Position numbers and translations under genes: made by a program. Positions 2,514-58,559 of a stretch of 64,000 nt of DNA are shown in pieces. The notes beneath the pieces were generated by a model that was given only the letters and a program-made list of their open reading frames with translations, made no database searches and was not told the DNA's origin. Position 1 is the first letter of the stretch. Every line of letters begins with the position of its first letter. This DNA comes from Candidatus Hydrogenedentota bacterium (GTDB lineage Bacteria; Hydrogenedentota; Hydrogenedentia; Hydrogenedentales; JAGMZX01), in the NCBI GenBank assembly GCA_029556545.1, contig JAKQEQ010000042.1:18729-82728 (forward strand), given 5' to 3'.

Positions 2514-3023
2514 ATGACGGACGTCGCCCTCCACATAGACGACCCGGCGGTCCGCATCACGATCAAGGCGATGCTCGAAGCCGCCGGCCACCGCGTCGTC
2601 ACGCATAACCCCGACGTCATCATCGCCGACGCGCCCGACGCCGCCGTCGAACTCGCGAAACACGCCCCGACGCTGACCCTCGCCGCCGCCGCCGACCTCC
2701 CCCGCGCCATCGACGCCATGCGCAACGGCGTCTTCGGCTACATCTTTCTCCCCCTTCAGCCCGGCGAGGCCGTCCTCATGGTCGACCGCGCCGTGAACGC
2801 GCCCCAGACCCGTCATTCCCGCGGAAGCGGGAATCCAGCAAACGCGCCTTCCGACACCATGCCCGATCCGACCGAAGACCTCACCCTCGCGACCCTCGAG
2901 CGCGATCATGTCCTGCGCGTGTTGCGCGCGCACAAATCCAATCACACTGCGGCCGCGCGCGCCCTCGGCATCGGACGCAACACGCTCTGGCGCAAACTGA
3001 AGCAGTATCAACGGGAGGTATGA
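2514..3023 (+). CDS. Fis-family HTH transcriptional regulator with degenerate receiver-like N-terminal domain
   Basis: C-terminal ...HTAAARALGIGRNTLWRKLKQY is the Fis/NtrC-type HTH. N-terminal ~110 aa resemble a CheY-like receiver (VIIADAPD). No sigma-54 AAA+ domain. Start chosen at MTDVALH (2514) inside longer ORF 2430..3023. Confidence 0.6.
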   Translation: MTDVALHIDDPAVRITIKAMLEAAGHRVVTHNPDVIIADAPDAAVELAKHAPTLTLAAAADLPRAIDAMRNGVFGYIFLPLQPGEAVLMVDRAVNAPQTRHSRGSGNPANAPSDTMPDPTEDLTLATLERDHVLRVLRAHKSNHTAAARALGIGRNTLWRKLKQYQREV

Positions 3024-4995: not shown

Positions 4996-5003
4996 CGCCG
5001 GAA

Positions 5004-5150
5004 ATGGGGTATCACATGCACGACGACAGCGAAAAACAGTTCTCTCCACTGCAAATCCTCCTGTGGCCCTACTACCTCGCCTACTACGTCTTCCCCATCC
5101 TCTTCGCCGTCGCCGTCGCCTGGTTCGAAGACCGCCTCGGCCTCAACTGA
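5004..5150 (+). CDS. possible small membrane protein (48 aa)
   Basis: MGYHMHDDSEKQFSPLQILLWPYYLAYYVFPILFAVAVAWFEDRLGLN has one hydrophobic helix. Immediately followed by a hairpin/A-T tract. Weak support. Confidence 0.25.
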   Translation: MGYHMHDDSEKQFSPLQILLWPYYLAYYVFPILFAVAVAWFEDRLGLN

Positions 5151-5153
5151 AAC

Positions 5154-5188
5154 CCAAAAAACCGTGGCACGGGCGTCCCGCCCGTGGT
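5154..5188. terminator. GC-rich hairpin flanked by A6 (plus) / T6GGGTTT (minus), terminator-like, possibly bidirectional
   Basis: aaaaaaCCGTGGCACGGGCGtccCGCCCGTGgtc: 8-bp stem CACGGGCG/CGCCCGTG with a 3-nt loop. On the minus strand the hairpin is followed by TTTTTTGGGTTT. Confidence 0.35.
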
Positions 5189-5193
5189 CTTCA

Positions 5194-5245
5194 ATCATGG
5201 GCAAAATGCCCATGCCACGCAATCAACAGATACGCCGCAATTCGG
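5194..5245. repeat. copy 1 of a ~50 bp imperfect direct repeat (ATCATGGGCAARATGCCCATGCCACG...CAGATRCGCSGCAATT)
   Basis: About 84% identical (by hand alignment) to 6563..6612. Contains the small palindrome ATGGGCA-N3-TGCCCAT. Confidence 0.7.
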
Positions 5246-5313
5246 CGCGGCAATCTCTTCCTCCTCTCCGGTCTGCTATACTGGAGACGGACCGCGCCAA
5301 GAGGACCTCGAAA

Positions 5314-5613
5314 ATGGATTTGCCGATTGTTATCGACGAGGAACAGATCGCGGCATTTTGCCGCAAGCACCCCCTGACGAAGCTCGCGTTATTCGGGTCG
5401 GTGCTGACGGACCGCTTCGGACCGGACAGCGACGTCGACGTGCTCTTCGAGTACGACCCCCAACACGTGCCAAGCCTGTTCGACGTCGTCGAGATGGAAG
5501 AGGAACTCAGCGCAATCCTTGGACGCCGGGCCGACATGCGAACGCCCTGCGACCTGAGTCGCTACTTCCGCGACGAAGTCGTCCGCACCGCGCAGGTCCA
5601 CTATGCTGCTTGA
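5314..5613 (+). CDS. nucleotidyltransferase domain protein (MntA/AbiEii-like minimal nucleotidyltransferase), no HepT partner
   Basis: GSVLTDRFGPDSDVDVLFEY is the classic GS...DxD minimal nucleotidyltransferase motif. Start at MDLPIVIDEE (5314) inside ORF 5164..5613. No DUF86/HepT-like ORF downstream. Confidence 0.75.
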   Translation: MDLPIVIDEEQIAAFCRKHPLTKLALFGSVLTDRFGPDSDVDVLFEYDPQHVPSLFDVVEMEEELSAILGRRADMRTPCDLSRYFRDEVVRTAQVHYAA

Positions 5614-5642
5614 CTCGGACCACATCCCCACGCACGACCGTC

Positions 5643-5802
5643 ATACCCGCGCAAGCGGGTATCCAGCGCAATGCGCCATTCCCGCGCGTTCGCGCGGGAA
5701 TGACCGGTTTATTCTGATTGCTGGATTCCCGCTTTCGCGGGAATGACGGGGAGGGACTGGGTTCCCGCTTCCCGCTTCCCGCTTCCCGCTTCCGCGGGAA
5801 CA
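5643..5802. repeat. cluster of palindromic hairpin units (family A: GTCATTCCCGCG-GNRA/GAAA-CGCGGGAATCCAG) plus (CCCGCTT)x4
   Basis: Contains TTCCCGCGCGTTCGCGCGGGAA (perfect hairpin), CTGGATTCCCGCTTTCGCGGGAATGAC (reverse-orientation unit) and gttCCCGCTTCCCGCTTCCCGCTTCCCGCTTCCgcgggaac. Same family as 6185-6450 and 37422-37503. Confidence 0.8.
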
Positions 5803-5839
5803 GGTTTCGTGGAAATGATGAAGCAAGGAGGGCTGACCC

Positions 5840-6133
5840 ATGCGGAAGAGAGAACCCGCCGTATACATTCTCGCAAGCCGGCGGAATGGGACCTTGTACA
5901 CTGGAGTTACAAGCGATCTGAGCAGGCGGGTCTGGGAGCACAAAACCGACGCGGTCCCGGGGTTCACCAAGAAGCATGGCGTACACCTGCTTGTGTACTA
6001 TGAATGGCATACAACCATGGACTCCGCCATATCCCGCGAGAAGCAGATCAAGAAGTGGAACCGCGCGTGGAAGCTGCAATTGATCGAGGACTATAACGCG
6101 GACTGGCGAGACTTGTACGAAGAATTGATGTAG
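5840..6133 (+). CDS. GIY-YIG nuclease family protein (97 aa)
   Basis: VYILASRRNGTLYTGVTSDLSRRVWEHK... is the canonical GIY-YIG motif with the conserved R and E. Size typical of stand-alone URI-domain proteins. Confidence 0.85.
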   Translation: MRKREPAVYILASRRNGTLYTGVTSDLSRRVWEHKTDAVPGFTKKHGVHLLVYYEWHTTMDSAISREKQIKKWNRAWKLQLIEDYNADWRDLYEELM

Positions 6134-6184
6134 TACGGGATCGTTGCTCGCGCGGGCATAACGCAACATGGCCCAGAATCACTC

Positions 6185-6450
6185 CCCCCCGTCATTCCCG
6201 CGCAAGCGGGAATCCAGCGCCCCCCGTCATTCCCGCGCAAGCGGGAATCCAGCGCCCCCGTCATTCCCGCGCAAGCGGGAATCCAGCGCCCCCCGTCATT
6301 CCCGCGAAACCTGTTCCCGCGGAAGCGGGAAGCGGGAATCCAGCGCCCCCCGTCATTCCTGCGAAACCTGTTCCCGCGGAAGCGGGAAGCGGGAATCCAG
6401 CACCCCCCCGTCATTCCCGCGCAAGCGGGAATCCAGTCATTTCCACACGG
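6185..6450. repeat. tandem array of 6 copies of a ~35 bp hairpin unit (CCCCCCGTCATTCCCGCGCAAGCGGGAATCCAGCG), two copies carrying a ~24 bp nested-hairpin insertion
   Basis: Units abut head-to-tail with no unique spacers. 8-bp stem ATTCCCGC/GCGGGAAT with GNRA-type loop GCAA. Translates as the spurious WIPACAGMTG/SFPRKRESS repeats seen in ORFs 6091..6960(-) and 6168..6470(+). Confidence 0.9.
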
Positions 6451-6562
6451 TCTCGCCCGTCCCCGTCTAGCCCCCTCGCGCGGGCATGAAGCAAAGGCAC
6501 AAGGGCAAGAATGTCCCATCGCCGGTCGGTTCCGAGATGGCTTCCAGTCTCGCCATGAGCAA

Positions 6563-6612
6563 GGATCATGGGCAAGATGCCCATGCCACGGCGTCAGCAG
6601 ATGCGCGGCAAT
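6563..6612. repeat. copy 2 of the ~50 bp imperfect direct repeat; overlaps the last 7 codons of hypE
   Basis: Matches 5194..5245. Together the two copies bound a ~1.4 kb segment containing the MNT gene, the GIY-YIG gene and both hairpin-repeat blocks. Confidence 0.7.
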
Positions 6613-7645
6613 TGCTCGCCGCTGAGCATATCGAGAATGCGCTGCGCGCCGATGCGGCTTTCGAGCGTGACCCGCCCTGGCGCGTCGGCGTGGGCGTGGC
6701 CGATGATCGCGGGCTGCGGCGCCTGGGGATGGCCGCGCAGCACGTCGAGCGCGCGCGCCGCGTCGTCCGCGGCGACGACCGCCATGAAGCGCCCCTCGTT
6801 CGCGACGTAGAGCGGGTCGAACCCGAGCAGTTCGCACGCGCCGCGCACGTCGTCGCGGACGGGGATGTCCGTCTCGCGCAGGTGCAACCCGACGCCCGCC
6901 GCCTGCGCGATCTCGTTCGCCGCGCTCACGAGCCCGCCCCGGGTCAGGTCGCGCAGGCAATGCACTTCGACGCCCCCGCGCAGCAGCGCGAGCACGGCGT
7001 CCGCCACCGGCGCGGAATCGCTCTCGATGGCCGTCTCGAATTCGAGCCCCTCGCGCGTGGCCATAATCGCAATGCCGTGGCGGCCCAGGTCGCCGTTGAT
7101 GAGGACGACGTCGCCGGGCCGCACCGCGCCGGGCCCGATGACGCAGTCGTGCTCGATGACGCCGATCCCCGCCGTGTTGATGAAGAGGCCGTCGCCGCCG
7201 CGCCGCTCGATGACCTTCGTGTCGCCCGTCACGACTTGCACGCCGCAGGCGTCCGCCGCGCGCCGCATCGACGCGACCAGCCGCAGCAGCAGTTCTATCG
7301 AAAGCCCCTCTTCGAGGATGAATCCCGCGCTAAGGTACAACGGCCGCGCGCCCGCCATCGCCAAGTCGTTCACCGTCCCGTGGACCGCCAGCGACGCGAT
7401 GTCGCCGCCGGGGAATTCGAGAGGCTGCACGACGTAGGAGTCCGTTGTGAACGCGATCCGCGCGCCGTCGATCGCGATCCGCGCCGCGTCGTGCCGCTGC
7501 GCCAGCAGCGGGTTGTCGAAGGCGCGGAGGAACACGTCCTCGATCAGGCGGTGCATGGCCGTGCCGCCGCCGCCGTGCGCCATCGTGATCACCGGGCTCG
7601 ATGCGTGCGGCATCGGGCAGGACAGCGTGAATTCCCCCGGCGTGC

Positions 7646-21188: not shown

Positions 21189-21316
21189 AGACCTACCACA
21201 GGGTTATGATTGAGCCTTCTCGCACAACCACCGCCAGAAATACAACCAACGTCGTCGGTGTATTCTACGCCCGCCGTCGAAGGTGGTCAATGCGCGGCGC
21301 GCTCCGTCCATCCCAT

Positions 21317-21364
21317 CCGTCTTGTCCACCCCGTCCACCTCGTCCACCCCGTCCACCCCTCCCC
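21317..21364. repeat. 12-bp tandem repeat (CGTCCACCYC x ~4)
   Basis: ccgtcttgtccaccccgtccacctcgtccaccccgtccacccc upstream of the 21429 gene. Confidence 0.7.
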
Positions 21365-21403
21365 CCGCGCCGCCGCCTACATGCCAGGCGGCCCATGCCT
21401 CTA

Positions 21404-21409
21404 TAATGG
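21404..21409 (+). promoter_or_regulatory. consensus -10 hexamer TATAAT ~20 nt upstream of ATG 21429
   Basis: gcctcTATAATgggcgcggagacctctgcttcATG. No good -35 seen (ctacat). Supports 21429 as the start of the downstream gene. Confidence 0.4.
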
Positions 21410-21428
21410 GCGCGGAGACCTCTGCTTC

Positions 21429-23696
21429 ATGGATGCTGCCCCGTCGAGAAGGCTGTGCGCCGCGTGCGCCGTCGCGGCGTTCCTGTGCATCGCCGCGGCC
21501 ATGTTCACCCATACCGTCCTCGCCCGCGCCCCGTGGTTCGGCGAAGCGCCCATGAACATCGCCGGCTGGATGACCGGCGGTTCCACGCTCATGGCGAAGC
21601 ATTGGCACCACGAGGGCGCGTGCGCGATGCGGTTCGCCATGGTTTGGGAGCCGGACTCCATCGAGCAGCCGTACCTCGGCGAACGCACGCCCTACGTCTC
21701 CTATCCCCCCGGCGCGATCCTGCCCCTCCATCTGCTGGCCCTGTGCCGGGGCCGCGAACCGACGCCCAGCCTCGCAATGGCCCTCAACCTCGCGCTGCAT
21801 CTGGTCACCGCCCTGGTCCTCGCGGCAACCGTCGCCCTGTTATTGCGGCGCGCCGCATTCTCCCGGTGGAACGCCTTCGTCCTCGCGCTGGTCCCGCTGT
21901 CGCTCTATCTCTACCTCCCCATTGCCTACCACGAACACCTCATGAGCTACTTCGCCGACGCCGCCGTCCTTCCGCTCTACGCCCTCTTCATCTTCCTCGA
22001 AATGCTCAGAGACCGCGTCGAAAGACCTTGGATGCGTCGTTCGCTGGCCATGATTCAGGGGTTTGTCGGCGCGCTCGGGCTGCTCACCGACTGGCTATTC
22101 GCGTTCCTCGCGGCGTGCGTCTGGTTGGCGCGGCTCGGGCGCGGGCGGCTTGGGCGCGGCATCTTCGAACCCGCGCGAAACTCGCTCGTCTATGCCCTGC
22201 CCTTTGTGGCGGTACTCGCGCTCTTCATAGTCCAAGTGATCGCAATCGGGGGAAAAGACATGATCATCGAGCGGTTCCTCCTGCGATCGGGAGCCACGCC
22301 CGGCCACGGTCTCGCCGACGGTCGCAACCCGCTCGATTACGCCTCGCTGGACACCTTCCTCAGGTTCTCGCTCGATACGCGCTTCTGGAACGAGCATGTC
22401 CCCGCATCCTTCGGCCGACACGGAACACCGATCATCGTCTTCTCCTTCGCCGCATGGGCCGTCCTGACGCTCCTGACCGCCTTCAAGACCCTGCTTCACC
22501 GCCTCCGCCCCCGTCGTGGCCGGTCTCCCGACCGTGCCACCGACACGACCGAAGGTCTCCCCCGTTGTGGCCGGTCTCCCGACCGTACCACCGACACGAC
22601 CGAAGGTCTCCCCCGTTGTGGCCGGTCTCCCGACCGTACCACCGACACGACCGAAGGTCTCCAATCGTCCTCACCCTCGCCGAGAGCAAATGCCGCTGCC
22701 GGCCTGCTCGCCGCCGCGTTCCTGTATCTCGTTCCCTGCCTCCTCTACTACCACGTCTTCAAGCAGCACAACAACCTCCTCTTTCACCGCTACAGCACCC
22801 TCAAGTTCGCCCTGCCCCTGGCCGCGCTGCCCCTCGCGATCCTGCCGGCCGCGTGCTGGCGACTCTGGTTTCCGGCCCCCGCACCGCAACCCTTTCCCAT
22901 AGGTAAACGGGGGGAGTGGAAATTGGGTCCCTTGGCCGGTCGATGCGCTCCGGTGGCCCTGCTCGCGCTCGCCGCCGCGTTTCTCGTAGCCGTGACGCCC
23001 GAACGCAAGGCGCTCTTCTTCTCCGATGACGACCTCCGCCACGTCGCCGCCGGAAAGTTCATCGCCGCGAACACGACCCGGAACGACATCGTCTTCGCCC
23101 CCGCGCGCCCTGCCTGGGCCGATATGCCCCAGTTCCGATGCTACGCCATGAAGCGGCTCCACCCCGCGAGCTCCGTCTGGGACCTCTACGCCTTTGTGCG
23201 CGATATCGACGGTCCCTGGCGCATCGCGCTGTTCCTCGACCGCGCCGACCGGCTTGATCGGCTGCCGGAGTTGCGCGCGCTTGGGACCCTCATTCGGGAC
23301 CGCGTTTTCTTTCAGGGCGCGTTGTTGCTTTATGTTGATAAATGTATTTTTGCATCGTTTTGTGAACGTATACGTGTCAATACGAAACACCCGAATGACC
23401 GCAACCGCGATGGCCGACTGACCCTTGACGAACTCGCGCCCGTCATTGACGCCTATCTCGCCGGGGCCTATCACGACGACCCAAGCGCCCCTTCCGGCTA
23501 TGCCGCCGGGCCCGGCCCCGTTGCACTGCCGCATCCCGGAGACTACGGCCCGGACGTGGTGGACGGCCAAATCAATCTGTCGGAACTGCTCCGGCAGACG
23601 CAGTTGTACAATAGCGGCGGATACCGTTTCGACGCGACGGCGCAAGGCCGCTTCGCGCCGCACGCGCCCACGGAAACCACAGGAAGCATTCCATGA
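21429..23696 (+). CDS. polytopic membrane protein with internal 3x17-aa tandem repeat and C-terminal dockerin/EF-hand-like Ca-binding repeats
   Basis: More than 10 TM helices. PRRGRSPDRATDTTEGL x3. C-terminal DRNRDGRLTLDELAPVIDAY and DVVDGQINLSELL loops. Start chosen at MDAAPSRRL (21429); ORF opens at 21210. Confidence 0.6.
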   Translation: MDAAPSRRLCAACAVAAFLCIAAAMFTHTVLARAPWFGEAPMNIAGWMTGGSTLMAKHWHHEGACAMRFAMVWEPDSIEQPYLGERTPYVSYPPGAILPLHLLALCRGREPTPSLAMALNLALHLVTALVLAATVALLLRRAAFSRWNAFVLALVPLSLYLYLPIAYHEHLMSYFADAAVLPLYALFIFLEMLRDRVERPWMRRSLAMIQGFVGALGLLTDWLFAFLAACVWLARLGRGRLGRGIFEPARNSLVYALPFVAVLALFIVQVIAIGGKDMIIERFLLRSGATPGHGLADGRNPLDYASLDTFLRFSLDTRFWNEHVPASFGRHGTPIIVFSFAAWAVLTLLTAFKTLLHRLRPRRGRSPDRATDTTEGLPRCGRSPDRTTDTTEGLPRCGRSPDRTTDTTEGLQSSSPSPRANAAAGLLAAAFLYLVPCLLYYHVFKQHNNLLFHRYSTLKFALPLAALPLAILPAACWRLWFPAPAPQPFPIGKRGEWKLGPLAGRCAPVALLALAAAFLVAVTPERKALFFSDDDLRHVAAGKFIAANTTRNDIVFAPARPAWADMPQFRCYAMKRLHPASSVWDLYAFVRDIDGPWRIALFLDRADRLDRLPELRALGTLIRDRVFFQGALLLYVDKCIFASFCERIRVNTKHPNDRNRDGRLTLDELAPVIDAYLAGAYHDDPSAPSGYAAGPGPVALPHPGDYGPDVVDGQINLSELLRQTQLYNSGGYRFDATAQGRFAPHAPTETTGSIP
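22509..22661. repeat. 3 x 51 bp near-perfect in-frame tandem repeat inside the 21429 CDS
   Basis: cccgtYgtggccggtctcccgaccgtRccaccgacacgaccgaaggtctcc x3 with 2 mismatches. Also produces spurious minus-strand ORF 22095..22664. Confidence 0.9.
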
Positions 23697-37324: not shown

Positions 37325-37421
37325 GTTGGCTGCTTTTTGGTGCATTCGTGGTCGGTTAAGCCGCTGCACATAACGTCTCCAAGCGTATAACGCATACTTC
37401 TTCCTCGTCTGCACGAATTGG

Positions 37422-37503
37422 CCTGGATTCCCGCTTCCGCGGGAATGACGGAGAAGAGGGCCAAATTCGCCCCCGGCGTCATTCCCGCGGAAGCGGGAAT
37501 CCA
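37422..37503. repeat. inverted pair of family-A hairpin units (CTGGATTCCCGCTTCCGCGGGAATGAC ... GTCATTCCCGCGGAAGCGGGAATCCAG)
   Basis: Read directly. Same unit as the 6185-6450 array. Gives spurious IPASAGMT peptides in ORFs 37249..37527 and 37418..37627. Confidence 0.85.
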
Positions 37504-37647
37504 GAAAGACACAGACAGTGCCCTCAACCGAACACGAATGCTTTTTGGTGTGCTGTTCCGCTATTACCGCTGGATTGCCGGATTCTTGGCGGAGTCGCGG
37601 TCGAATCGCGGCGTATGTTGCGGATAGCGCGGACGACTTGTTAGCGC

Positions 37648-53976: not shown

Positions 53977-54945
53977 TTACCCCCTTATCCCTTGATGGAC
54001 ACTCCGCCGTTCTGCCAGACTTTGCCGCAGAGCGCCGGCCGTCACCTTCGTCTTGTCCGCAAGAATGGCCCGCTTGATGGCGTCGCGGCAGGCGGTGTCG
54101 ATTTCGGCATGGCTGAGACGCGCGCTCTGGCGCAGCACCGCCGCCCACGCGAATTTGGGCGCGAGGAAGGTGCCCAACACGTTCTGCATGAGCCGTTTGC
54201 GGTCGGCTTCTTCCGGCAGTGCGTAGTACAACACATCGTCGAAACGGCGGTACAGCGCGCGGTCGAGCAGCTTCGGGCTGTTCGTCGCCGCCACGATCAG
54301 ACTGTCGGAACTGTCCTGCTCGATAAACTGTAGAAAGGCATTCAGCACCCGGCGCATCTCCGCCACATCGTTTTCCAGCATGCGTTCGCCACCGATGGCG
54401 TCGAACTCGTCGAAAAGGTAGACCCCCGGCTCCTGCTGAATCAGCTCGAAGATCTGGCGCAGCTTCGCGCTCGTCTCACCCATGAACTTCGTCACCAGCT
54501 TGTCCACCTGGACGGTGTGCAGCGGCAACCTTAGTTCATGCGCCAGCACCCGCGCCGTCATCGTCTTGCCCGTGCCCGGCGGCCCGACAAGCAGCACCTT
54601 GCGCCGGTGCGCCAGCCCGTGCAATTTCAGCTTCTGCTGTTGACGGTACTCATGAACGATGCGCTGCACCCGGTCGGACAACGACTCCGGAATCACCAGC
54701 GCAGAGCGCGGCGTGTCCGGTTCCTCGGAAAACACCAGCCCGCGCAAGTCCACCGGAAACTTCAATATCCGAGGGCCGCGCTCCCGCCGTGCCTTATCCA
54801 CGAGTTCCCGGATGTCAAGGGCCAGCGCCCCGTGGCCCTGTTGGGCCTCATGCGCCGCTACTTGCAGCGCAATCGTGTAAAACCGCTCCGCGTCGTCACT
54901 TAGGTGCGACCGAATCAGCGCCTTCAGTTGTTCCGCAGTGGCCAT
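53977..54945 (-). CDS. ietA: AAA+ ATPase (classic AAA, SpoVK/CbbX-like); candidate IetA-like partner of the S8 peptidase
   Basis: 322 aa. Walker A GPPGTGKT, Walker B LFDEFDA, sensor/Arg-finger region ATNSPKLLDRALYRRF. Sits between hsdS and the S8 gene. Gene symbol tentative. Confidence 0.8.
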   Translation of the reverse strand: MATAEQLKALIRSHLSDDAERFYTIALQVAAHEAQQGHGALALDIRELVDKARRERGPRILKFPVDLRGLVFSEEPDTPRSALVIPESLSDRVQRIVHEYRQQQKLKLHGLAHRRKVLLVGPPGTGKTMTARVLAHELRLPLHTVQVDKLVTKFMGETSAKLRQIFELIQQEPGVYLFDEFDAIGGERMLENDVAEMRRVLNAFLQFIEQDSSDSLIVAATNSPKLLDRALYRRFDDVLYYALPEEADRKRLMQNVLGTFLAPKFAWAAVLRQSARLSHAEIDTACRDAIKRAILADKTKVTAGALRQSLAERRSVHQGIRG

Positions 54946-55055
54946 CGATAATCCCCGGCTGTGTCCCGCTTGATGTTACCTTCTTTCCGATTCTACATCA
55001 ACAATTCGCAACCTGAACCCCGATGTTCAAGCGGACCGGTGGTCCTGGCTTCTTG

Positions 55056-56261
55056 TCATACCGCAATCTCCCCGTTCATCAGGCGCGGCAGGAGTAGATC
55101 GCGCGCCGCGCGGAGACGTTCATTGTGCTGCTTGAGCACACGAATTTGAGCAAAGTGGAGGCTGGCCTGCTCGGAAAACTCCAGAGTGAAGCTGTGCGCG
55201 GGAATCACCACCTCGAATTCGCGAAACTTCCCTCGACTGACTTCGGGGTACGTGCTCCCGCTGCCCATGGAGCGGATTTCTTCAACCCGGTCGGAAAGAT
55301 GAAACACGAGGTACGGGGTCAAAACGGGTTCGTGGGGCACAACAGAAATGAAACCCTGGTTGGTGCAGACTTCGCGGCCCGCTATGCCAAAGAAGCCGAC
55401 GGAGGCGCGACTCGTCATGAGAATGGCATGGGGTTTGACAAGCTTTGCCGAACTATTCTGTAACCCCGCCTCTGTAATCTTCTTCTCGGCATCCAGAAGA
55501 ACGAAATGCTTATTCCTCGTTACATCAGTTGGTGTCACCCACGTGATTTCGCCGTCGTCCCAATAAGCAGCATTCGCAGTTGAAGGCGTGCCGCCCCCAA
55601 CGCAATCGGCCACATCACCTATTCGTTTCCGTTCCCAGCCTTGGGGGAGGCCGTTCGTGATGGGGGTGTGTTCGTGGCCGGGGAAGCGGAGGCGGACAAA
55701 CCATTCGCGGTAGAGTTGGCGGGCCGATTCTTCCAACAACGCCATCCGCCGCCGGTTGTTCTCGATCAGGTCGTCATACGCCGACAAGATGTCTGCAATG
55801 CGTTGCTGCACTTCGAGCGAAGGAAAGCTTATCTCGACTCCTGCGAGCTTTTCTCGTGGAAGATGCTTGATTGTTGCGCCGGTTAACAGAGGCGTAAAGC
55901 CCCCGAGCCTTCCCTTATGAAGCAGTGAATAGAACAGGAACCGGTAATCGAGGCAATCATGAGGACGAATGCGGTGAAGGGCTTTTTGGTACATTACTCC
56001 GGGCATAGGCTCTTTCCAAACTGCGCAACGTCCGGGTTCGCCGCCTTCACACAGGAGAATGTCGCCGCACTTCAACCCGTATCGCTCCATTTCATCTTGC
56101 TCGAACCGCATCTCGCGAAGGTTCTCAAGATCGAACTCGCCCCAGCGAACGTTGATATTTGCAAGATACGGAAGGGCTTCTCCCCTATTTTTCCTTTCGT
56201 CCAACATTTTACCCAAGCTAAAATCCGCAATCTCGGCCAAGGGCTTAGTCATCCACTTCAT
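55056..56261 (-). CDS. hsdS: type I restriction-modification system specificity subunit
   Basis: 401 aa. Two target-recognition domains separated by a conserved central coiled region (LIENNRRRMALLEE...). Start overlaps the hsdM stop (ATGA). Confidence 0.85.
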   Translation of the reverse strand: MKWMTKPLAEIADFSLGKMLDERKNRGEALPYLANINVRWGEFDLENLREMRFEQDEMERYGLKCGDILLCEGGEPGRCAVWKEPMPGVMYQKALHRIRPHDCLDYRFLFYSLLHKGRLGGFTPLLTGATIKHLPREKLAGVEISFPSLEVQQRIADILSAYDDLIENNRRRMALLEESARQLYREWFVRLRFPGHEHTPITNGLPQGWERKRIGDVADCVGGGTPSTANAAYWDDGEITWVTPTDVTRNKHFVLLDAEKKITEAGLQNSSAKLVKPHAILMTSRASVGFFGIAGREVCTNQGFISVVPHEPVLTPYLVFHLSDRVEEIRSMGSGSTYPEVSRGKFREFEVVIPAHSFTLEFSEQASLHFAQIRVLKQHNERLRAARDLLLPRLMNGEIAV

Positions 56262-58378
56262 ATCCCCAACTCCTGGAAGTTGGCCTGGATTTTGGCGGCG
56301 AGATCGGCGGCTTCGGTGTTGAGGTCGGCGAGTTCGACGTGGATGCCGCGGAGGGTCTCCTCGAAGTCGAAGTCTTCGTCGTCTTCCTGGGGCGCGACGC
56401 CGACGTAGCGGCCGGGGGTGAGGCTCCAGTCGGCGGCGGCGATTTCGGCGCGGGTGACGAGCCGGACCAGACCGGGCACGGCTTCGAGGTCGGCCTTCGG
56501 GAAGCGGTCTTCGAGCCAGGCGACCTGCCGGTGGAAGTAGACGGTGCGCTTGAGTTGTTCGACGGCGTCCTTGCGCGTGTCGTCGAGTTGTTTGACGAGG
56601 CGGTTGGCGGCGCGGCGGTCGTAGCTGGATTCGAGGCCGGTTTCCACGACGAGGTTCGCGGCGTGGTCCGCCACGCGCGCGGTAAGCTTGAAGACGAGGT
56701 CCACCTGTTTGACGAGGCCGCGCAGGCGCTCCGCGACAGGCTCGAAGGCATGGCGCGCGGCATGCTGCGCGGCGTTCGATTTGGGCGGCTTCTTCCCGTA
56801 CTTCTTCACGAACGCGGCGCAGTCTTTGATCGCGCGCTTCCGGTCGGCGATATAGGCCGTCACGGCGTCAGACGATTCAAGGAGCGCGTCCAGGAACGGC
56901 TGTTTCGTCTCCGCGGGCACGTCCCAAACGTTATTGACGCTTATCGCCAGCGCGGCCAGTCGCATTCGGAGTTCGCCCAGCGCCTTCTCGAATGTGTCGA
57001 TCGCGCCGGGCACGGCGGCGCACTCTTCGCAGACGCGGCGGAAGTAGTCGGTCACGAGCGCGAGGAAGCGGTCGCGTTGGCCGCGGTAGAGCCAGACGAT
57101 GGCGGCGAGGTTGTGCAGTTGTTCGGGCGAGAAATCGTTGATCTTGCGGTTGACCTTGCGGAACACATTGCGCGCGTCGATCATGAGGACCGTATCGCGC
57201 CGTTCGGCGGGCTTGCCGCGGTCGAAGAACCAGAGTTCGCAGGGGACGGTGCGCGTATAGAAGAAATTCGAGCGGATCGAGACCATGACGTCCACGTCGC
57301 CGGTCTCGACCATCTTGCGGCGGACTTCCTTCTCGCCGTGGCCCGCGCTCGAAGCCTGAGACGACATGACGCAGCCGGCGCGGCCTTTCTCGTTCAGGTA
57401 GCTCCAGAAATACGAGAGCCAGAGGTAGTTGCCGTTCGAGACCTTCTTGGCCTTGTTCACGCCGGGCAGGCCGAAGGGCAGGCGCGGATCGCCCTGGATG
57501 CGCTCGGCATCGACCAGATCGACGTTGAACGGGGGATTGGCCATGACGAAGTCGCATTTGCCGTAGAGGCTGTGTTCGTCCTGGTAGTAGGTGATGGCCT
57601 CGGCAATCTGGCCTTCGAGGCCGTGTACGGCGAGGTTCATCTTGGCGATGCGGATGGTGTCGCGGTTCTTTTCCTGGCCGTAGAACACGACTTTCTTCGC
57701 CGTGTCGCCGCCGGCCTGCTCGATGAAGTGGCTCGATTGCACGAACATGCCGCCGGAGCCGCAGGCGGGGTCGAAAACGGTCCCGTGGTCCGGCTCGATG
57801 ACGTTGACGATGGTCTGCACGATCGAGGCGGGCGTGAAGAACTCGCCGTTGTCGTGGGCCTTCTGGATCGAGAACTTGGCGAGAAAGTATTCGTAGATGC
57901 GGCCGAACACGTCGCCCGTGGCGTTCTTGATGCGCTCGGTGTTGAAGGTGCGCATCAGGTTTTCGAGCACGGCGGGCTCGAAAATGCCGTAGTCCTTCGG
58001 GAGCACGTTCTTGAGCGGATCGAAGGCCGCCTCGATGGCCTCCATCGCGCCGGTCACCAGTTTGGGCAGGCCCGACTGGTCAGAGGTGGCCTTTTTCATG
58101 ATCGTGTCGTAATGCGCCGCCTCCGGCAGCCAAAGCGCGCGGCGCGAGATGTAGTCGGCGGGCTGCACCTTGCGTTTGGGCATCTTGCCGCTCGCCTGGT
58201 CCGCCTGAATCTGGCGCGTGGCGGCGTCGAACCGGTTGGCGGCGTGGCGCAGGAAGATAACGCCCAGCACGGGCATGAAATAGTCGCTCGAGGTGAGCTT
58301 CGAATTCGCGCGGAGGTTGTCCGCCGCCTCCCACAAGTCGGCTTCCAGCTTGTCGATGTCTCTGAAAACGTCCGGCAT
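56258..58378 (-). CDS. hsdM: type I restriction-modification system methyltransferase subunit (long form)
   Basis: 706 aa from MPDVFRDID. N6-adenine MTase motifs (VFDPACGSGGMF motif I, NPPF motif IV) and N-terminal HsdM_N region. ORF opens at 58432. Confidence 0.9.
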   Translation of the reverse strand: MPDVFRDIDKLEADLWEAADNLRANSKLTSSDYFMPVLGVIFLRHAANRFDAATRQIQADQASGKMPKRKVQPADYISRRALWLPEAAHYDTIMKKATSDQSGLPKLVTGAMEAIEAAFDPLKNVLPKDYGIFEPAVLENLMRTFNTERIKNATGDVFGRIYEYFLAKFSIQKAHDNGEFFTPASIVQTIVNVIEPDHGTVFDPACGSGGMFVQSSHFIEQAGGDTAKKVVFYGQEKNRDTIRIAKMNLAVHGLEGQIAEAITYYQDEHSLYGKCDFVMANPPFNVDLVDAERIQGDPRLPFGLPGVNKAKKVSNGNYLWLSYFWSYLNEKGRAGCVMSSQASSAGHGEKEVRRKMVETGDVDVMVSIRSNFFYTRTVPCELWFFDRGKPAERRDTVLMIDARNVFRKVNRKINDFSPEQLHNLAAIVWLYRGQRDRFLALVTDYFRRVCEECAAVPGAIDTFEKALGELRMRLAALAISVNNVWDVPAETKQPFLDALLESSDAVTAYIADRKRAIKDCAAFVKKYGKKPPKSNAAQHAARHAFEPVAERLRGLVKQVDLVFKLTARVADHAANLVVETGLESSYDRRAANRLVKQLDDTRKDAVEQLKRTVYFHRQVAWLEDRFPKADLEAVPGLVRLVTRAEIAAADWSLTPGRYVGVAPQEDDEDFDFEETLRGIHVELADLNTEAADLAAKIQANFQELGI

Positions 58379-58559
58379 GCAATCTCCCCTCGGGCGGGCA
58401 CGCATCCTGGTCCAACCTGACCACGCAGGCATTCCGCCTGCCCGACACTTTCCATGGAAACCGGCTTCATTCTACTGCGCAACCGGCGACGGCGCAAGGG
58501 GCGCCCGCGGGCAACTTTCGACGCACGGCCTTTGTTACAGACAGCCCTCGCCGGGCACG

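Follow-up and report, generated by a model that had tools for sequence, protein, structure and literature searches.

A probable cluster of Ssn recognition sequences directly downstream of an ssnA homologue in a Candidatus Hydrogenedentes genome

For Neisseria, a repeat termed Neisseria Transformation Sequence (NTS) has been described, an oriented motif of 28 nt with the consensus CGTCATTCCCGCGMAVGCGGGAATCYRG (Chenal et al., Nat Commun 2025, PMC11893778), which contains the older dRS3 palindrome ATTCCCN8GGGAAT. The NTS is bound, as single-stranded DNA (ssDNA) only, by SsnA, a single-domain GIY-YIG nuclease of 94 aa. The N. meningitidis enzyme cleaves a few nucleotides 5' of the motif, and the reverse strand, double-stranded DNA and RNA are not substrates. 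Here, the key bases are GTC ahead of the palindrome for cutting and C directly after it for binding. Homologues of ssn in many phyla have flanking NTS-like motifs, termed SRM, and a 71% association of the gene with a looser SRM motif has been reported, with homologues taken by blastp at E < 1e-10 (cd10448) and one motif mismatch allowed. An analogy with IS was raised in the same study (PMC11893778), in whose main text the words 'tandem', 'RAYT' and 'REPIN' are absent. The dRS3 palindrome is also part of the NIME arrays, in which RS elements of 19-214 bp lie between dRS3 copies, often in alternating orientation, and which have been thought to be Neisseria-specific (Bentley et al. 2007, PMC1797815).

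Here, a 64-kb stretch of DNA from a Candidatus Hydrogenedentes genome, in the following called the window, was analysed around a tandem hairpin array. The array comprises six head-to-tail units at 6190-6436, four of 28 nt and two composites of 50 nt, all on the + strand and separated by C-rich linkers of 6-8 nt (CGCCCCC, CGCCCC and CACCCCCC). An earlier sequence-only reading had described six abutting hairpin units, two of them with a nested hairpin, and Tandem Repeats Finder (TRF), the sequence and DNA folding bear this out. The simple units at 6190-6217, 6225-6252, 6259-6286 and 6409-6436 are all identical (CGTCATTCCCGCGCAAGCGGGAATCCAG). The first of them is abutted on its 5' side by a C7 tract at 6183-6189. 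The first three, spanning 6190-6286 with CGCCCCC and CGCCCC between them, fall into a 35-nt period (6185-6306, 3.5 copies, 97% matches), and the composites into one of 57 nt (6273-6421, 2.6 copies, 95%). The last simple unit is followed by a truncated half unit, TCATTTCCAC, at 6437-6446.

Folded as ssDNA (-9.0 kcal/mol, z = -4.6), a simple unit has a stem of 8 bp capped by a GCAA loop, so that the 8-bp stem with GNRA-type loop proposed before holds as well. In the composites at 6294-6343 and 6351-6400, the second of which differs by C>T at 6360, the loop of the unit is replaced by CCTGTTCCCGCGGAAGCGGGAA, which adds a second, inner hairpin; folded as ssDNA they form two stacked stems (-15.8 kcal/mol). 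Their 3' arm GCGGGAA is repeated and is seen by TRF as a 7-nt microsatellite (period 7). Among 87 loci checked, the nested composite was seen in no other organism. The 20-nt palindromic core has 12 matches at up to three mismatches, most of them in the ssnA cluster described below, versus 0.03 expected from shuffles, an enrichment that is counted within the 64-kb window.

Two further repeats were noticed around the array. The first is a 20-nt direct repeat (CTCGCGCGGGCATAACGCAA and CTCGCGCGGGCATGAAGCAA, 18/20 identical) at 6147-6166 and 6475-6494, which encloses the whole array and looks like a degenerate half of an NTS; within its second copy, contig L001 departs from the window sequence. The second is a separate repeat family, ATCATGGGCAARATGCCCATGCCACG, present at about 5185-5215 in the region of an NTase ORF and at about 6560-6590 past the array, near the hypE end, and encoding GKMPMPR and HGQ(D/N)AHAT peptides.

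The NTS paper was reached by a full-text literature search with the string ATTCCCGCG; a literature search combining GIY-YIG with 'repetitive extragenic palindromic' found nothing. The repeat unit CGTCATTCCCGCGCAAGCGGGAATCCAG agrees with the NTS consensus at every position. The window contains five exact matches to the consensus and eight at up to one mismatch, and the GTC 5' and the C 3' of the palindrome are kept in six of six array units as well as in the copies starting at 2811, 5721, 37423 and 37477. From its consensus match and its flanking bases, the repeat is identified as the NTS/SRM motif of the Ssn system, an identity that the sequence-only reading had missed. That reading had set the array apart from CRISPR, and rightly so, since the linkers are near-identical and only 6-8 nt long, spacers are absent, and neither a cas gene nor a Cas domain is found in 34 ORFs scanned in the window.

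Directly upstream of the array lies a gene which had been overlooked. The ORF at 5840-6133 (+ strand) is preceded by a good ribosome-binding site, AAGGAGGG, at 5825-5832, and ends about 50 nt ahead of the C7 tract. It encodes a protein of 97 aa, in which GIY-YIG is the sole domain (Pfam, E 3.7e-16). Alignment with the 94-aa SsnA homologue of N. gonorrhoeae gives 61% identity (E 1e-44) with no gaps, and Y9, Y20 and E67 of the window protein align with Y6, Y17 and E64 of Neisseria, the residues that were mutated in PMC11893778. The Neisseria reference gene was taken from N. gonorrhoeae chromosomes mislabelled as plasmids in PLSDB. One of these entries (NZ_CP119140.1) is a 2.17-Mb chromosome, in which ssnA is unannotated and 16 NTS copies lie within 3.3 kb around the gene. 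An identical 97-aa protein is annotated in the Candidatus Hydrogenedentes MAG GCA_035342535.1, and exact-protein look-ups returned identical or near-identical proteins from several metagenome assemblies. NCBIfam offers no specific family for the protein, only a weak group I intron endonuclease match below the cut-off, and a PDB sequence search gave only the distant UPF0213 proteins 1zg2 and 1ywl. On alignment and position, ORF 5840-6133 is assigned as an SsnA homologue, cognate to the adjoining NTS array. The sequence-only reading had pointed to a possible transposase elsewhere in the genome; the partner enzyme is instead this GIY-YIG nuclease next to the array.

NTS copies are present on both sides of ssnA, upstream at 5639, 5677, 5721 and 5757, and downstream at 6190-6436. 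Closest to the start codon, 21 nt upstream of the ATG, a degenerate composite occupies 5757-5818 on the - strand. It is 93-95% complementary to the right-hand composites (inverted repeats I3/I4) and holds 4.6 copies of the 7-mer GCGGGAA (TRF period 7, 5762-5793). Next to it, at 5721-5748 (-), a canonical NTS with a GAAA loop matches the consensus exactly and belongs to a 59-nt inverted repeat of 92% (I1). Together, these two elements form a left flank that mirrors the outer right array at 6351-6436 (I1, I3). Further out, an NTS-like variant at 5677-5707 (-) has a 12-13-bp stem (-15.1 kcal/mol) and G in place of the C after the palindrome. The variant ATACCC...GGGTAT at 5639-5666 (+) has two consensus mismatches, both in one base pair, a compensatory two-sided change that preserves the stem (-8.7 kcal/mol). 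The sequence-only reading had placed one inverted copy at 5700-5730; such a copy does exist, with slightly different coordinates, the exact one being 5721-5748 and the long-stem variant 5677-5707. On the downstream side, 15 nt past the ssnA stop codon, a degenerate half NTS, TCGCGCGGGCATAAC, is found at 6148-6162 (-; repeat family D4/D5), the site at which most homologous loci carry an NTS on the - strand.

Away from the gene, two perfectly inverted 28-nt copies, 26 nt apart, form an NTS doublet between the aconitase and recD2 genes, at 37423-37450 (-) and 37477-37504 (+), which agrees with the inverted pair reported before at 37422-37503. With 5639/5677, it is one of two inverted doublets of short extragenic palindromes in the window. 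The doublet is central in a segment of about 200 nt (37331-37550), apparently of lower GC by eye, whose borders are formed by an imperfect inverted repeat of 19 nt (37342-37360 / 37523-37541) and a direct repeat of 12 identical nt, TGCTTTTTGGTG. This segment has the form of a MITE-like shell, and its terminal repeat is found nowhere else in the window.

A solitary NTS lies at 2811-2838 (+), in frame, in the linker between the domains of an HTH_8/Fis-type regulator (ORF 2514-3023; region 2796-2848). On either side of it stands AACGCGCC, a direct repeat of 8 identical nt whose copies are 45 nt (15 codons) apart, so that the NTS looks like a tolerated in-frame insertion. Since a target-site duplication is not a general feature of 199 other isolated NTS copies, which deviate only slightly from the cross-locus null and without consistent length or position, this 8-nt repeat is treated as an isolated case. 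For the same reason, and since the unit is a single hairpin lacking terminal inverted repeats, a MITE nature of the units is not supported. Of the earlier label of a dispersed REP/MITE-like family, the dispersal holds, the likeness to REPs is fair in the light of Bertels et al. (bioRxiv 10.1101/2021.07.10.451892), and the likeness to MITEs is not supported. As had been stated, the repeats also give rise to spurious ORFs, namely 6091-6960 (-) and 6168-6470 (+) with their WIPACAGMTG and SFPRKRESS peptides; the NTS explains how such ORFs are seeded in annotations. Elsewhere in the window, a 51-nt tandem repeat (3.0 copies, 98% identity, 22508-22662) lies inside ORF 21210-23696, for which there is no Pfam match, and a Methylase_S gene (type I restriction-modification specificity subunit) adjoins an AAA ATPase gene at 53977-58432, possibly a defence island.

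The array is located between the convergent genes ssnA and hypE and, as RNA, the region has a strong fold (z = -5.75), which would suit a locus-specific RNA structure, a terminator or an mRNA stabiliser. Several observations argue against such a function. No terminator-like or promoter-like site was found by scan, and no Rfam family reached threshold, the scan of 5000-7000 giving only sub-threshold chance matches to miRNA, snoRNA, Transposase-2 RNA (20.5 vs 42.7 bits) and P36. Furthermore, the motif is dispersed in both orientations, with one copy inside a coding region, and RNA is not acted on by SsnA (PMC11893778). The sequence-only reading had held that a repeat confined to these loci and conserved in position would favour such a regulatory structure; the motif occurs in many phyla and metagenomes and is thus not confined in this way. 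We regard an RNA element as barely credible.

Across taxa, 80 loci with SsnA relatives of 58-71% identity were fetched from GTDB species representatives, covering Pseudomonadota, Elusimicrobia, Planctomycetota, Nitrospirota, Chloroflexi, Acidobacteriota, CPR and others. An NTS with up to two mismatches lies beside the gene in 57 of them, and the looser SRM pattern of PMC11893778 is matched in 65. The median distance of the NTS from the start and stop codons is about 22 nt. Usually, a gene-strand NTS is found about 23 nt before the start codon and an opposite-strand NTS about 22 nt past the stop; this (+,-) layout dominates (32/80), and outside both copies the sequence is unrelated between loci. 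The layout of the window, (-) upstream and (+) downstream, is the nearest-neighbour pattern in none of the 80, and it also surrounds ssnA of N. gonorrhoeae. Same-orientation runs of at least three NTS are present in only three of the 80 loci, and in one of these, from a Planctomycetota MAG, the four units abut and repeat every 33 nt. Matching the full consensus in a Hydrogenedentes MAG fits a strong co-constraint between protein and DNA together with horizontal spread of the module. Among the matches listed, the exact NTS consensus was also seen in viral or prophage sequences of IMG/VR, in over 120 contig stretches, some of them with many copies.

The serious rival to an Ssn-centred view is the REP/REPIN-RAYT system, according to which a domesticated tyrosine (HUH) transposase of the IS200/IS605 type, with its gene at another place, copies the hairpins around the genome as REPs, and Ssn is only a secondary binder or regulator. 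For Neisseria, Bertels et al. (10.1101/2021.07.10.451892) described the same repeat (ATTCCCGCGCAGGCGGGAATC, 241 copies) as REPINs whose population is linked to a Group 2 RAYT and decays where the RAYT is frameshifted. The inverted doublets at 37423/37477 and 5639/5677 are likewise typical for REPINs. Nevertheless, no Y1 transposase domain was detected in 34 ORFs scanned in the window or in 20 ORFs flanking long arrays in other contigs, and it is ssnA to which the motif is linked, both physically and phylogenetically. Since the window is a 64-kb part of a larger genome, the absence of a RAYT from it is weak evidence. Taken together, spread by a RAYT appears unlikely as the main explanation, although the two partners are not mutually exclusive and may coexist.

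Tandem arrays of this kind are not restricted to the window. A metagenome-wide pattern scan for abutting NTS, with the linker set at 3-10 nt, yielded arrays in 44 contigs, mostly of 3-21 units with a period of 30-39 nt, in hosts whose GC content ranges from 34% to 70%. Each of these arrays has its own linker sequence (2-12 nt). Only five of the 44 contigs carry an ssn gene within the retrieved stretch, so that an array does not depend on a cis-encoded ssn. The 20 ORFs next to long arrays elsewhere are unrelated ordinary genes, e.g. tRNA synthetases, topoisomerase I and ABC transporters, with no transposase, RAYT or cas gene among them. For the locus of the window itself, a longer form exists in sample 3300010356, in which the terminal unit is present twice, giving 7 units vs 6 in the window. 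This form was seen in two contigs, one entering from the ssnA side and the other from the hypE side; all of these are short-read assemblies, and six other contigs end inside the array.

The near-identity of the array units (97%), and linkers that are constant within an array and differ between arrays, indicate growth by local duplication of a founder rather than repeated arrival of a fixed mobile unit. Most likely, a founder unit made of NTS plus linker was duplicated in tandem on the spot, via slippage or unequal exchange. The same instability would have left the nested composites and the 7-nt GCGGGAA microsatellite as by-products.

A different view is that NTS-ssnA-NTS is a selfish mobile module and that the arrays are footprints of Ssn-driven amplification or reinsertion of units at its own cut sites, not of passive slippage. 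In favour of this view, NTS copies delimit the module no more than about 22 nt from either end of the gene, its flanks are unrelated, and protein identities of 58-77% extend across Elusimicrobia, Planctomycetota, Chloroflexi, Nitrospirota, Pseudomonadota, CPR and other phyla. The array period of 30-39 nt corresponds to an NTS plus a short 5' stretch, which is where the enzyme cuts, the observed size change is exactly one unit, and the analogy with IS from PMC11893778 points in the same direction. On the other hand, Ssn is not known to transfer strands or to ligate DNA, the canonical layout gives each strand only one cleavable site, the 199 isolated copies lack a consistent target-site duplication, and array-specific linkers fit local duplication equally well. 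We therefore consider the selfish module quite unlikely. That the abutting head-to-tail arrays are made by Ssn itself, through 5' cuts and re-joining or re-copying of unit-length ssDNA, is in our estimate very unlikely; if true, NTS-ssnA would represent a new GIY-YIG-driven class of self-amplifying repeats, distinct from those driven by HUH (RAYT) and DDE enzymes.

The preferred reading is that the array is an NTS/SRM cluster, i.e., a set of Ssn recognition sequences, directly downstream of its cognate ssnA in a Candidatus Hydrogenedentes genome, and we hold this to be very probable. The NTS-ssnA-NTS locus itself is present in a Candidatus Hydrogenedentes MAG, as seen from the motif, the gene and the association of gene and repeat across taxa. 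Mechanistically, the + strand would become single-stranded during replication, repair or DNA uptake, upon which the units could fold into their 8-bp hairpins with GNRA-type loop. Ssn would then bind both the hairpin and its oriented flanks, namely the GTC that precedes the palindrome and the C that immediately follows it, and would cut a few nucleotides 5' of the motif, i.e., within the C-rich linkers, leaving the opposite strand and duplex DNA uncut. The C7 tract and the C-rich linkers are accordingly the predicted cleavage zone on the + strand, the cut position being that of the N. meningitidis enzyme. That the SsnA homologue of the window binds and cleaves in this way is predicted from the enzymes of Neisseria and Wolbachia. 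With regard to the cellular role, the analogy with Neisseria would suggest a modulation of recombination with incoming motif-bearing ssDNA, although this is uncertain.

With this, a named and biochemically characterised system, Ssn/NTS, is assigned to an otherwise anonymous repeat. New relative to what the main text of PMC11893778 describes are the recurrent abutting form, the nested composites and the one-unit length polymorphism, and the host lineage would be new as well. The abutting arrays, the one-unit change and the nested hairpins provide material on how NTS copies multiply, and the array accounts for the short-read assembly breaks at this locus in the source organism.

Compared with the known systems, the locus is closest to Ssn/NTS (PMC11893778), with which it shares the 28-nt motif at every position of the N. 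meningitidis consensus, the 8-bp hairpin, the oriented flanks, the adjoining single-domain GIY-YIG protein of about 95 aa and repeats on both sides of the gene. It differs in its host, Candidatus Hydrogenedentes, and in being known from sequence alone. Furthermore, its units abut with linkers of 6-8 nt instead of being spaced, two of them are nested double hairpins, and the orientation around the gene is divergent, in contrast to the convergent one of most homologous loci.

The NIME arrays of dRS3 (PMC1797815) have in common with the window the core ATTCCCN8GGGAAT, the position beside genes and a length that varies between strains. In contrast to NIMEs, the 'RS' of the window is only 6-8 nt long and all array units have one orientation. 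REP/BIME and REPIN-RAYT systems resemble the locus in their short GC-rich extragenic hairpins, which are dispersed and sometimes form inverted doublets, and in a small dedicated enzyme that recognises the repeats as ssDNA and is encoded between copies of them. Here, the partner is a GIY-YIG nuclease and not an HUH tyrosine transposase, a RAYT is absent from the window, and the array runs head-to-tail, whereas BIMEs alternate in orientation. With CRISPR, the array shares its tandem of palindromic direct repeats, each about 28 nt long; in contrast to CRISPR, it lacks spacers, cas genes and a leader, and its unit is also dispersed singly, in both orientations and even inside a gene.
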